64,000 nucleotides of DNA, from NCBI GenBank assembly GCA_900299345.1, contig OMJM01000062.1, forward strand, positions 80,788 to 144,787. Reading direction: 5' to 3'. This DNA is from a bacterium. Its GTDB lineage: Bacteria; Fibrobacterota; Fibrobacteria; UBA11236. Under the pieces are notes generated by a model. That model worked only from the letters and a program-made list of their open reading frames with translations, was not told the DNA's origin and did not search any database. Below, in pieces: positions 33,499-37,555 of the stretch. Position 1 is the first letter of the stretch, and each line of letters begins with the position of its first letter. A program made the translations under genes and the position numbers.

Positions 33499-33924
33499 TT
33501 AAAAGGATTGCTCTGTCGAATCCGCAAGGGCAACTCCTTGCCCCGCAAGCCGCACAAATAAAGGATCGCGAGAGTCTAAATAATTGCTCGTCGCTGACAA
33601 GACAAAATCAAGAGCATTACATGCCTGTGCCACAAGGAGTAACCCTTTGTCGGAAGTTTGGCCCTGGCTCGATTGCTCCGCATTATCCGTCATTACTTGC
33701 TCCTCAAGACGATGTACAAGTTTAAGCAATGTTAACTGTTCCTCACGTAGAGGGTATATGGTACTGCGAGAGTCTTGGGCACGATCTAAGAGAGACAATA
33801 TTTTGGATTTAAGTTCAGAGTATTGAGAACGGTATACTTTGGCAGACGTTGATAGCGGAGAGGCCAAGGGATTTGTTGAGGAACCTAACAGAATAAAAAT
33901 AACTGTGATGAGTGCTGTCCTCAT
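33499..33924 (-). CDS. secreted hypothetical protein (141 aa)
   Basis: Signal peptide MRTALITVIFILLGSSTNPLA. No recognisable domain. Low-GC coding sequence. Confidence 0.45.
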   Translation of the reverse strand: MRTALITVIFILLGSSTNPLASPLSTSAKVYRSQYSELKSKILSLLDRAQDSRSTIYPLREEQLTLLKLVHRLEEQVMTDNAEQSSQGQTSDKGLLLVAQACNALDFVLSATSNYLDSRDPLFVRLAGQGVALADSTEQSF

Positions 33925-34040: not shown

Positions 34041-34667
34041 CTAGCCCCCAATAAACCCTTTTCCCCTCAAATACTCCAGCACCTTCTCCACACTCGCCTC
34101 CAGCGATTCCTCCCCCGTCTTCAACACAACTTCCGGATGTTCCGGCTTCTCATACGGCGACGAGATCCCTGTGAAATCCGAAATCAACCCCTGCCTCGCT
34201 TTCTTATACAACCCCTTCGGATCGCGCTGCTCGCAAACGTCCAAAGAAGCGTCCACGAACACCTCAACAAAATCCGAGCCGATGAGATCGCGGGCCATGC
34301 GGCGTTCGGCGCGGAACGGCGAGATGAAAGAAACAAGGGTGATGAGATTTGCATCCCAGAAAAGTTTGGCCACATGCGCCACGCGGCGGATGTTCTCCTG
34401 CCGATCCGCGTCGGAGAAACCGAGATTGCTGTTGAGCCCGGTGCGCACGTTGTCGCCATCGAGCAGATAGGTCATTCGGCCGAGTTGATTGAGGCGGGAT
34501 TCCACCGCGTTGGCCACCGTGGATTTTCCGCTGCCGGAAAGTCCGGTGAACCACAGCACCGCCCCGCGCTGGCCGGAAACCCGGGCGCGATCCTCGCGCT
34601 TCACGCTGGCTTCGTGAACGGTGAGGTTGCGGCTAGTCGGATCGTTAGAGTGGTTTGAGTGGGTCAT
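34041..34667 (-). CDS. cysC: adenylyl-sulfate (APS) kinase
   Basis: Intact P-loop [13 protein letters not shown] plus DGDNVR and FISPFRAER motifs. Overlaps the cysN 3' end by 23 nt. Confidence 0.9.
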
Positions 34668-36462
34668 ATGGGTAAGGCTTTATTCGTTCGGCTAATGAAA
34701 AATCAACCTTATCCGCCAACTCGATGGAAGATGTCCGAGATGAAACAAGGATTTTATCTCTTTCATCACTAACACTTACTTCAAAGGGTTTATCGGAAAC
34801 CCATAAAATTGGAATTGGATTAATTATGTCGGACAACATTTGTGCGTCTTCTTTGTCTAGCTCATCTAAAAGAAGCCAAACCGTTGCTCCTGTGTCGGCC
34901 CTATGATAAGCAGCCATTCCTAATAGGTGCAATAATTCCGGAGACTGTTGCTGCGATCTCTGCAATGTTGAACCATCTTCGCTTGAAACCACAAGACCCA
35001 GCGGTTCAGCCGGTATCTTTTTCTCAAGCCAACGGCTTTCCAAAATCTTCACTGCTTCACGAAAAGCAGGGTTCAATCCTACAAAAACAGCCACAGCCCC
35101 AGAATACCCTAAAAGCTGAGTGCGCTTTTGGAATGAAATATTCCTTTGCGTAAGGTACTGATGAGAAGGACCAAAGTCTGCATTTTTTTCGTCATCTGCG
35201 GCCAAGGCTTCGCGGATGATGCCCCCGCCCGCGATCTCGTATTGATCCACGATCACGAACCGTCCGGTGGCTTCGATGGCCGAAGTGAGATCAAAGGCGA
35301 TGGGCTTGCGCAGTTGCAGGATGCAATCCGCCACGTCGTGGCGTTCCACGCGATCCGGATCGTGATCGCGGCCGCTTTCCGAAGCGTCGATCAGATAGTT
35401 GATGTGGTGCAACCGCACCGGAACCTTGGCCGAGCCGAGCTTGAGGAAATAATCCCGGCCCATGCGCAGCGCGGCTTTGCCCATCCAGAAAATGTTCACG
35501 CGAATGCGGTTGGACACTTCGGGCAGTTGCTCGCCGACCTTGGCCATGAGTTCGCCGCGTCCGAGATACACCTGCGTTTCCAAAGTGACACCTGCAGACC
35601 AGCCTGCGTGAATTTCGTTACGGGACGGGGCGTTGAATCCCTCGATGCCGCGCACCTTGCTCTTCTTGCCCGACGGCAGGAACACCACTTCATCGCCCAC
35701 ACGCAATGTACCCGACTCTACGCGGCCTGCCACGATACGGCGATCGTCGCCGCTGGCGGTGAACTTGTAAACGTCCTGTACGGGCATGCGCATGGGCTGG
35801 CCGGTTTTGGGAGGCGCTTTTTCAAACGCGTCCACGGCGGAAAGCAGATCGGGTCCCTTGTACCAGGGCATTTTCTCCGAGGGCTTCACCATGTTTTCGC
35901 CCGGAAAGGCGGCGATGGGAACGAAGAAGCGCGGCGTCGCGCCGATGCGCGCGAGAAAGGCCACGTACTCGTCGCGGATATCCTCGAAGGCCTGGCGCGA
36001 ATAATCCACCAGATCCATCTTATTCACCACCACCACAATCTGCCGGATGCCGAGCATGGCGAGCAGATAGCCGTGGCGCTTGCTGTTTTCCTGAATGCCT
36101 TCCTTGGCGTCGATCACCAGCACGGCGGCTTCGGCGCGGGCCGCGCCCGTGACCATGTTCTTCAGAAATTCAATGTGACCCGGCGCGTCGATGATGACGT
36201 AGTCGCGGTTGCCGGACTTGAAGAACGTGCGCGCCGTGTCGATGGTGATGCCCTGCGCCTGCTCATCCTTGAGTGCGTCGAGCAGAAAGGCGTATTCGAA
36301 CGGACGCGAGTTCGCGGCGCAAAAAGCGCGAATGGCTTCCAATTTTCCGTCGGGCAGCGAACCGGTGTCGGCCAGCAAACGGCCGATGACCGTGCTCTTG
36401 CCATGATCCACGTGGCCCACGATCACGATGTCCATGCGTGGACGTCCCTGCACGGCGGCCAT
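34645..36462 (-). CDS. cysN: sulfate adenylyltransferase subunit 1 (CysN GTPase) fused to a degenerate APS-kinase-like C-terminal domain
   Basis: GTPase motifs [14 protein letters not shown] and NKMD. The C-terminal roughly 175 aa align with CysC but the P-loop is replaced (GLNPAFREA) and DGDNVR is lost. The ATG overlaps the cysD stop (TAATG). Confidence 0.85.
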
Positions 36463-37376
36463 TACATGTACCCGTCGCGGCGCAAAGTTTCCAGGCCGCC
36501 GTCTTCCTTGTCCTGCGCACGGCCCGAGCGTTCCGCGATGTTCGCGAACTTGCCGGTCTTCAGTTCTTCCACGATCTCCGCGACGTTGTGCGCCTCGGAT
36601 TCCACGGGGTTGGTACAGGGATAGCAACCCAGCGAGCGATAGCGCTTACCGTCGCCCTTGTTGAAATACAGATCGATGATGGGAATGTTCTCACGCTGGA
36701 TGTATTCCCAGATGTTCAGCTCGGTCCAGTCCAGCAACGGATGGACGCGTACGTGCGTGCCCGGCGCGAAGTCAGTCTTGAATTGGTTCCACAACTCCGG
36801 GGGCTGATCGCCCACGTCCCACTCGCTGTTCTTGTCGCGTGGGGAGAAATAACGTTCCTTGGAGCGCGAACCTTCCTCGTCGGCGCGCGCGCCCACGATC
36901 ACGCCCGTGTACGGCTCGCGGTTCGAGTCCACTTCATACTGGCCGGTCTTGTGGTTCATGCGGAAGCGCGGCCACTCTCCGGAGAGGGTGTTGCGCAGCG
37001 CGTCGGTCTTCAAGGCCTTGCAGCATTGCAAGCGCGTCAGTTTTCCGGCGGGAAACGTTTCACCTTTCGCCAACGCCTCTTTGTTCTGTCCGTACACCAT
37101 GTTGAGACCCCACTGACGCGCGAGTTCATCGCGGTAGGTGATCATGGCGGGGATCTTGAAGCTGGTGTCGATGTGAACCAGAGTGATCGGAACGTGTCCG
37201 AAGAAAGCTTTGCGCGCCAGCCACAGCAACACGGTGCTGTCCTTGCCGATGGACCAAAGCATGGCGAGGTTCTTGAAGTTGGCGTACGCCTCCCTCAGGA
37301 TGTAAACGCTCTGGTTTTCCAGTTGATCGAGATGATCCTGTTCGACAGCAACCTTCATGGGAACCCTATAATACAT
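36462..37376 (-). CDS. cysD: sulfate adenylyltransferase subunit 2
   Basis: PAPS-reductase-like fold motifs: SIGKDS, and CYPCT near the C-terminus. 304 aa. Confidence 0.9.
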
Positions 37377-37555
37377 ATTATTTTAGTCAGTATAAAGTCC
37401 TTTTAAAAAATCGAAAATATCGGTTTTTGGAGTCGAAATACGCTTTATTCGATTTATTGCATACTTAAATTGTATGTTAAACGGGGTTGTGAAAAATGTA
37501 CGGAAACGGCTGAATTAGTAGGTTAGGCCCCGAAAAGAGAACGCGGCCTTCGCGC
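37377..37555. promoter_or_regulatory. AT-rich divergent promoter region upstream of cysDNC with inverted TCGAAA repeats (AAATCGAAAAT ... ATTCGATTT)
   Basis: Read from the sequence. Candidate operator for sulfur-assimilation control. Confidence 0.35.

Follow-up and report, generated by a model that had tools for sequence, protein, structure and literature searches.

Gene content of the cysDNC locus

This work examines the sulfate activation genes cysD, cysN, and cysC in a 64-kb stretch of bacterial DNA (contig OMJM01000062.1 of GenBank assembly GCA_900299345.1; lineage Fibrobacterota, Fibrobacteria, UBA11236), with emphasis on the C-terminal region of the encoded CysN, which is related to adenosine 5'-phosphosulfate (APS) kinase and has lost the motifs of that enzyme. 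The whole 64-kb stretch is referred to here as the window; all positions are window coordinates, and all three genes lie on the minus strand. The first gene, cysD (36462 to 37376), encodes the small subunit of sulfate adenylyltransferase (304 amino acids; PF01507, E = 2e-38; NF003587, 350 bits against a cutoff of 195). The second, cysN (34645 to 36462 by open reading frame [ORF] call, with its stop codon at 34645 to 34647), encodes 605 amino acids. The third, cysC (34041 to 34667), encodes an intact APS kinase of 208 amino acids (PF01583, E = 1.7e-69; NF003013, 281.5 bits against a cutoff of 163) and has a guanine-plus-cytosine (GC) content at third codon positions (GC3) of 0.73. The expected kinase motifs of CysC are all in place: the P-loop GLSGSGKST (34518 to 34544), LDGDN (34449 to 34463), FISP (34317 to 34328), and the lid (34194 to 34226). 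The stop codon of cysD and the start codon of cysN overlap in a TAATG (36460 to 36464), and the 3' end of cysN overlaps the start of cysC by 23 nucleotides (ATGACCCACTCAAACCACTCTAA, 34645 to 34667). Both junctions were read directly from the sequence and agree with an earlier description of this DNA made without database searches (referred to here as the sequence-only reading); they identify cysD, cysN, and cysC as a translationally coupled operon.

Residues 1 to 421 of CysN (35200 to 36462) form the GTPase core, with EF-Tu-like domains I to III (PF00009, E = 1e-42; PF03144; PF22594). The G1 (GHVDHGKS, 36394 to 36417), G3 (DAPGH, 36175 to 36189), and G4 (NKMD, 36013 to 36024) motifs are intact, the protein clears the TIGR02034 model (338.5 bits against a cutoff of 336.1), and cysD adjoins the gene, all of which identify the protein as a CysN. 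The remaining residues, 422 to 605 (34648 to 35199, delimited by a change point in GC3), consist of a linker followed by a dead APS-kinase-like domain and are referred to here as the tail.

Homology and fold of the CysN tail

The sequence-only reading had proposed that the last ∼175 residues of CysN align position by position with APS kinase, and had suggested PF01583 as a check. On its own, the 181-amino-acid tail matched no Pfam or NCBIfam model, PF01583 included, even at E ≤ 1, and BLASTP against the CysC of the window retrieved just 16 identities over 49 positions (E = 0.003). A direct hhalign comparison of window-like tails with canonical kinases gave an E value of 0.0028 and a probability of 11%, and word-index and exhaustive HMMER searches with the tail found only its own fragment and one relative of 43% identity. 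Because the direct BLASTP and hhalign comparisons were weak when taken alone, intermediates were needed to establish homology. The tails of the best full-length homologues fall into group A (window-like), group D (Fibrobacteria tails of the "GGPGRD" type), and group C (tails that still match PF01583). Profile-profile comparisons connected group A with group D (6e-17) and group C (6e-9), group D with group C (3e-23), and group C with canonical APS kinase (1e-14). When a profile of 31 tails was compared to the sequences of the Protein Data Bank (PDB), the best 23 matches were all APS kinases, among them the Arabidopsis enzyme (3uie, 2e-14) and Mycobacterium tuberculosis CysNC (5e-10).

Structure prediction led to the same family. 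An AlphaFold2 model of the tail was confident (predicted local distance difference test score, 84.2; predicted template modeling score [pTM], 0.81), with strands and helices in the order β1-α1-β2-α2-β3-α3-β4-β5-α4. The folded pseudo-kinase core comprises residues 444 to 593 (34684 to 35133), in which an N-terminal helix is followed by β1 to α4 and no lid is present. Through the profile chain, the PDB search, and the fold, common descent with APS kinase and a common fold are established, and the earlier proposal stands to that extent. The residue-by-residue correspondence is shorter than had been claimed: sequence alignment to APS kinase spans only approximately the first 100 residues of the tail, from the N-terminal helix to β3.

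Loss of catalytic and ligand-binding motifs

Hallmarks of APS kinases are a P-loop, an LDGD motif, and a lid of ∼30 residues, the closure of which is essential for activity (PMC4373884). In the tail of the window, alignment to the canonical GLSGSGKS of CysNC and CysC places GLNPAFRE at the former Walker A/P-loop (residues 462 to 469; 35056 to 35079) and LGLV at the former LDGD, the Mg2+- and APS-binding DGDN loop (residues 488 to 491; 34990 to 35001); the sequence-only reading had correctly noted a P-loop replaced by GLNPAFREA and the loss of the DGDN motif. FISPxR is replaced by LDKEDA, and SPELLHLL has taken the place of the Arg and Asn of the RxENxRR segment, which belongs to the site for APS and 3'-phosphoadenosine 5'-phosphosulfate (PAPS). 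The β4-β5 connector (residues 557 to 569; 34756 to 34794, located by alignment and model) lies where true APS kinases have the ∼30-residue lid; the lid appears as a gap of ∼25 columns in the alignment, and the modeled secondary structure has no lid helices. A regular-expression scan of the whole CysN found the P-loop of the GTPase as its sole P-loop. In terms of APS kinase membership, the tail thus has the descent and the fold and lacks Walker A, LDGD, the lid, and a PF01583 score above the gathering threshold. With no P-loop, LDGD, FISP, or lid, the tail cannot be a kinase as far as sequence can show, and this copy is unlikely to bind ATP, APS, or PAPS.

These losses bear on an analogy drawn in the sequence-only reading, namely, that the arrangement resembles the noncatalytic domain of fungal ATP sulfurylase. 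As a mechanism, the dead domain would retain binding of PAPS or APS and regulate the CysD-CysN ATP sulfurylase by feedback. There is precedent for such a sensor in Penicillium chrysogenum, where PAPS acts as an allosteric inhibitor by binding to the noncatalytic, APS-kinase-like C-terminal domain of ATP sulfurylase (PMC3779200). The CysN tail shares this fold, and group C tails, which are under strong purifying selection, keep part of the APS site (GNxLxG and RxEHxRRLGE) and may therefore still bind a ligand. The copy in the window, however, has no lid, carries LGLV for LDGD and GLNPAFRE for the P-loop, and is devoid of the RxENxRR Arg and Asn; it evolves ∼9 times faster than the core; and in one of its close relatives, described below, the tail is gone, and in another an active kinase stands in its place. 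Nor does the model resemble the fungal domain more closely than it does true kinases (1m8p is 28th in the Foldseek ranking, with a profile E value of 6e-3). We therefore retain the analogy for the fold and the noncatalytic state and set aside its PAPS-binding mechanism for this copy, for which feedback sensing is highly improbable.

Integrity of the reading frame

An abrupt shift in composition and the silence of Pfam on the isolated tail could both be produced by an artifact, whether a frameshift, assembly of a chimera, or the false joining of cysN to a gene that is separate or degraded; a sequencing frameshift had been named beforehand as an alternative. Against this, the identical 605-amino-acid CysN was found on at least nine contigs from independent JGI, ENA, and NCBI samples processed with different assemblers, with identical or nearly identical cysN DNA on three of those contigs. 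The fused architecture is shared by more than 100 homologues, and the cysN frame is unbroken across the core-tail junction. Because the same protein recurs on at least nine independent contigs, a frameshift or chimeric assembly is excluded, and we give practically no weight to an artifact of any of these kinds.

The frame also behaves as coding sequence within the tail, in accordance with the earlier observation that it remains uninterrupted through the AT-rich domain. It contains no stop over 184 codons, and the other five frames contain 4 to 15 stops each; when DNA of 43% GC was shuffled, a frame of 184 codons remained free of stops in a fraction of only 5e-6. A tail-family hidden Markov model (HMM) built without the sequence from the window scores the tail at 76 bits (E = 5.5e-25), and 14 of the 20 most conserved tail-family positions are retained. 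GC contents at the three codon positions follow the order GC1 (0.55) > GC2 (0.38) ∼ GC3 (about 0.36), a pattern which argues for coding rather than neutral sequence.

A multiphylum subfamily of P-loop-less CysN tails

The sequence-only reading had called for a survey of related genomes and had missed how common the fusion is. Among the 120 best full-length homologues, most of them 540 to 620 amino acids long, 115 have no P-loop in the C-terminal part. We define the subfamily by a C-terminal, lid-less domain of ∼130 to 185 amino acids with the APS kinase fold on CysN, in which G462, AKxLE, LG(489), LGE(514-516), DAG(523-525), LDxxDxxxL, and P549 are conserved (numbering of the CysN in the window). 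The CysN of the window fits this definition, with M in place of E516 and T in place of A524. In a scan of species-representative genomes, for which the matches listed were mostly relatives of ∼50% identity, P-loop-less tails occurred in at least seven phyla, so that the fusion is not peculiar to the window; the matches listed include Gemmatimonadota, Bacillota, Planctomycetota, Omnitrophota, Chlorobium, and Nitrospinota, in addition to Fibrobacterota. Cultured carriers among the Bacillota are Halanaerobium saccharolyticum and Clostridium zeae. Databases label such proteins "bifunctional enzyme CysN/CysC" (JGI) or "adenylyl-sulfate kinase" or "GTP-binding protein" (NCBI). A full-text literature search, which left most subscription journals outside its reach, returned no paper that reports a CysN with a dead kinase domain. 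The subfamily is apparently large, distributed over many phyla, and undescribed.

A canonical kinase gene frequently accompanies the dead domain. In every Fibrobacterota-like relative examined (L001 to L005 and L007 to L010), cysD precedes cysN and an intact cysC follows it, the latter in 8 of 8 related loci counted. Among the matches listed from other phyla, about half of the loci have a canonical kinase gene no more than 3 kb away. In the Gemmatimonadales, the partner is a CysQ-CysC fusion encoded after the P-loop-less cysN. One such fusion of 457 amino acids (L006:6842-8215; also in L012, L023, and L033), followed by cysD, combines a CysQ-like phosphatase for 3'-phosphoadenosine 5'-phosphate (PAP; Inositol_P) with an active APS kinase. 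Judging from these domains, PAPS-making and PAP-degrading activities would reside on one polypeptide, which is unusual.

Two further arrangements were observed. In L054, L064, and L038, the tail is a separate ORF of ∼141 to 174 amino acids that overlaps the end of a shortened cysN; the gene may truly have split there, or a frameshift or sequencing error may be responsible. In a contig binned as Promethearchaeota (Asgard archaea; L032), a cysN of bacterial type has a P-loop-less tail, and the other strand encodes a canonical APS kinase; this reflects either horizontal transfer or binning contamination.

Constraint and decay of the tail

The strength of selection on the tail differs between lineages. 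In the Gemmatimonadales, the ratio of nonsynonymous to synonymous substitution rates (dN/dS) is 0.07 to 0.11 for the tail versus 0.08 to 0.11 for the core, with identities of 83 to 92% and 88 to 89%, respectively. This core-like constraint implies that the ancestral tail has a real, noncatalytic function. Core and tail identities are likewise about equal in group C. Group D proteins share 89 to 95% identity in the core and 69 to 73% in the tail, and group A proteins share 91 and 57%. Between the window and its nearest relatives, the core is 89 to 90% identical and the tail 38 to 42%. Pair by pair, core and tail identities are 90 and 39% for the window, as opposed to 96 and 72% and 91 and 57% for other pairs. 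In the group A pair L008/L009, dN/dS is 0.53 for the tail and 0.105 for the core, and in the comparison of the window with L010, dN is 0.60 for the tail and 0.067 for the core, the ∼9-fold difference mentioned above.

Relatives with CysN cores at least 89% identical to that of the window have lost parts of the tail or all of it. In P0003, the tail is truncated after α3; in P0004 and P0126, it is without the β2-α2 loop. In L001 (core, 90% identical), CysN stops at residue 442, and a 474-nucleotide tract of low GC (0.45 to 0.49) that is full of stops lies between cysN and cysC (L001:6330-6802). The tail HMM gave no signal in any frame of this tract, in which only a 16-residue tail remnant that includes LEERWLGKRI was detectable. 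The tract looks like what is left of a decayed tail. The absence of a tail-HMM signal in every frame also led us to reject a mere nanopore frameshift as the origin of the short L001 protein. As L001 has lost the tail, at least one close relative can do without the domain. A different outcome is seen in L091 (L091:4001-5989), where a canonical kinase 64% identical to the CysC of the window is fused to the CysN core in place of the tail. This locus has no tail and no separate cysC and shares its downstream synteny with the window (an HSP20 gene and a 298-amino-acid ORF); it looks like a secondary refusion after loss of the tail. Taken from these sequence comparisons, constraint on the tail is evidently strongly relaxed in the clade of the window.

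There is a serious alternative: the copy in the window may be a nearly functionless remnant, still translated until a stop or frameshift becomes fixed, or because truncation would mildly harm folding or the coupling to cysC, and heading to the state seen in L001. The high dN of the tail relative to the core, a GC3 of 0.35 that resembles the intergenic GC content of 0.34 to 0.37, the loss of a conserved Glu, and the truncated, internally deleted, and decayed tails of P0003, P0004 and P0126, and L001 all favor it. The open frame, which so few shuffles reproduce, the codon-position pattern, the 76-bit HMM score, and the retention of 14 of the 20 top family positions together with the full secondary-structure pattern speak against it. 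Furthermore, synonymous sites appear saturated and the protein is still recognizable, a combination that implies long-standing purifying selection at the protein level. On balance, we consider a functionless remnant unlikely, if worth serious attention.

A composition step confined to the tail

The sequence-only reading had remarked that the DNA of the tail is richer in AT than the rest of cysN and than cysC, and the GC profile that it had proposed bears this out. GC content drops from about 0.60 to 0.40 to 0.47 across roughly 34650 to 35200. GC3 is 0.77 over codons 1 to 421 and 0.35 over codons 422 to 605, as compared with 0.73 in cysC; the maximum-likelihood change point is codon 422 (position 35199; Fisher P = 9e-23), and GC3 is again at least 0.6 from the first codons of cysC. 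The GC3 of the tail is the lowest among all ORFs of the window and matches the GC content of neighboring intergenic DNA. In the other relatives examined, tail GC3 equals core GC3 (0.72 to 0.93), apart from a mild dip in P0003 (0.55 versus 0.63).

Such a step might have been created by recombination, with a low-GC tail swapped in as a cassette from a low-GC organism of the same architecture. A cassette would explain the sharp borders, as the step coincides precisely with codon 422 on one side and with the start of cysC on the other, and the equality of tail and core GC3 in all of the other relatives is in line with it. No donor was found, however: in a HMMER search of 1.84 billion representatives, the closest tail (P0122) was 43% identical and had a GC-rich-type composition. 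The affinities of the tail match the phylogeny of the core, the tail of the window being of the P0003/P0005 type with the QRQQQ insert. A low-GC tract is present at the same place in the sister lineage L001, and the dip in P0003 is a further point against a swap. An imported cassette is thus improbable. We favor AT drift in situ of a weakly constrained segment as the explanation of the GC3 step, because of the L001 tract, the P0003 dip, the agreement between tail and core affinities, and the lack of a donor. An internal promoter or RNA element behind the AT-rich tract was considered and rejected, as the tract contains no minus-strand sigma-70-like site and no credible Rfam match.

Several neighboring features were observed along the way. 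The stretch from 33.1 to 35.2 kb has the lowest GC content of the window, with cysC as an island of normal GC within it. Directly downstream of cysC, a minus-strand ORF of 141 amino acids (33499 to 33924) has a signal-peptide-like N terminus, no Pfam match, and a GC3 of 0.40, the second lowest in the window. At the other end of the operon, three overlapping sigma-70-like promoter matches lie on the minus strand within the AT-rich spacer (GC, 0.37) at and just upstream of the annotated cysD start (37368 to 37407), and the true cysD start may be further downstream than 37376. The L004 contig, otherwise identical to the window over cysN and cysC, has 56 differences from it; the 40 positions that were listed all fall inside ∼130 nucleotides of cysD (about 36780 to 36910), a clustering suggestive of recombination between strains over a short tract.

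Proposed role of the tail

Residues 422 to 605 are a translated, foldable, catalytically dead derivative of APS kinase, and this copy is probably a weakly constrained and possibly vestigial structural appendage. Its most likely role is that of a weakly constrained structural or dimerization module. In this proposal, the ancestor of the tail would have been an APS kinase fused to CysN, as in CysNC and NodQ. With P-loop, LDGD loop, FISP segment, and lid gone, the tail would not bind ATP and cannot phosphorylate APS, and PAPS is made by the separate, cotranslated CysC encoded downstream. The function of the ancestral tail would have been structural, with helices α2 and α3 pairing two CysD-CysN units or docking free CysC. 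Within the clade of the window, that constraint is strongly relaxed: the tail evolves faster than the core, its GC3 has become intergenic-like, and in the nearest relatives it is truncated, deleted, or replaced.

The emphasis on these two helices comes from conservation within the family and from known interfaces. Per-column conservation of the tail family is highest in α2 (residues 510 to 525; 34888 to 34935), a segment of LGEAAxxxxDAG type that is a remnant of RR(V/I)GEVAxLxxDAG, and next highest at the start of α3 (LDxxDxxxL). Helix α3 (residues 535 to 547; 34822 to 34860), with the family-conserved L535, D536, D539, and L543, stands in place of FISPxRxxR. The dimer interface of M. tuberculosis CysC is formed by α2 and α3 (PMC4373884). 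Dimerization through a kinase or kinase-like domain is general and includes the noncatalytic fungal domain. In Sat-type ATP sulfurylases, hexamer stabilization has been credited to the APS kinase domain, and the degenerate yeast domain is described as having no defined function (PMC3779200).

A stronger version of the structural idea would make the tail a conserved pseudo-kinase module that docks CysC, for channeling within a 1:1:1 CysD-CysN-CysC assembly, or pairs CysD-CysN units, and that may sense APS or PAPS in better-conserved lineages. It fits the Gemmatimonadales, where selection on the tail is as strong as on the GTPase core, and the usual position of the tail next to a real cysC. The docking idea in particular fits L091, which replaces the tail by a covalently fused CysC. 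We regard so definite a function as possible but doubtful.

The reading as a weakly constrained pseudo-enzyme, which we prefer, has to be held against several observations. Simple relaxation of protein-level constraint does not predict a sharp, domain-limited GC3 step. Rate estimates at close range are restricted, in that dS against the nearest tails is saturated, L002 and L003 have identical or nearly identical DNA, and L004 differs only in its cysD patch. Given the loss in L001, the copy in the window may have no function at all, and it has Met where the Glu of the LGE motif is ∼90% conserved. Conservation is spread over the whole fold core and is not specific to an interface. Finally, the full-length AlphaFold2 model (pTM, 0.70) has a low-confidence linker (residues 421 to 440) and gives the tail no definite placement.

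Implications for sulfate activation and annotation

A dead APS kinase domain carried by CysN, the G protein of heterodimeric ATP sulfurylase, is apparently undescribed and present in many phyla, and its core-like constraint in some of them points to a structural or regulatory role in sulfate activation. Metabolic reconstructions that infer APS kinase activity from such CysN proteins are wrong unless a separate cysC is present. Should the tail prove to be a conserved docking or pairing module, it would represent a new assembly or regulatory principle in bacterial sulfate activation and would also correct a systematic "bifunctional CysN/CysC" misannotation. The Fibrobacterota-like clade provides a series of domain states (constrained, relaxed, AT drifted, truncated, decayed, and replaced by a re-fused active paralogue) and, as such, a compact natural system for studying the loss of pseudo-enzyme domains. 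That one domain, with its frame still open, should have a GC3 as low as the GC content of intergenic DNA also raises the question of what keeps GC3 high elsewhere in the genome.

Comparison with known systems

One parallel is the C-terminal domain of P. chrysogenum ATP sulfurylase (1I2D/1M8P), which is likewise a noncatalytic, APS-kinase-like C-terminal fusion on a sulfate-activating enzyme and matches the tail in fold (Foldseek E = 7e-5). The host there is a Sat-type (PF01747) homo-oligomer, whereas in the window it is the EF-Tu-like GTPase CysN; the tail, unlike the fungal domain, is without the lid and the ligand-contact motifs, and sequence relatedness between the two is marginal (E = 6e-3). 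The equivalent domain of yeast Met3 (1J70) also differs from the tail: it is eukaryotic, sits on a Sat-type host, is of independent origin, and has no adjacent, cotranslated kinase gene.

Among bacterial proteins, the bifunctional CysNC/NodQ enzymes (M. tuberculosis Rv1286 and Sinorhizobium NodQ) have the same fused arrangement. The kinase half in the window differs from theirs in having no P-loop, LDGD, FISP, or lid and in being accompanied by a separate, active cysC, and against the bifunctional CysNC model (NF004035/PRK05506), the CysN of the window scores 378.7 bits relative to a cutoff of 715, with an alignment that stops at residue 478. The hexameric APS kinase of Thiobacillus denitrificans (3CR8) and comparable fusions of enzyme and pseudo-enzyme in sulfate activation present the reverse case: there, the dead part is ATP-sulfurylase-like and the kinase is active, whereas in the window the kinase-like part is dead and its partner is CysN.

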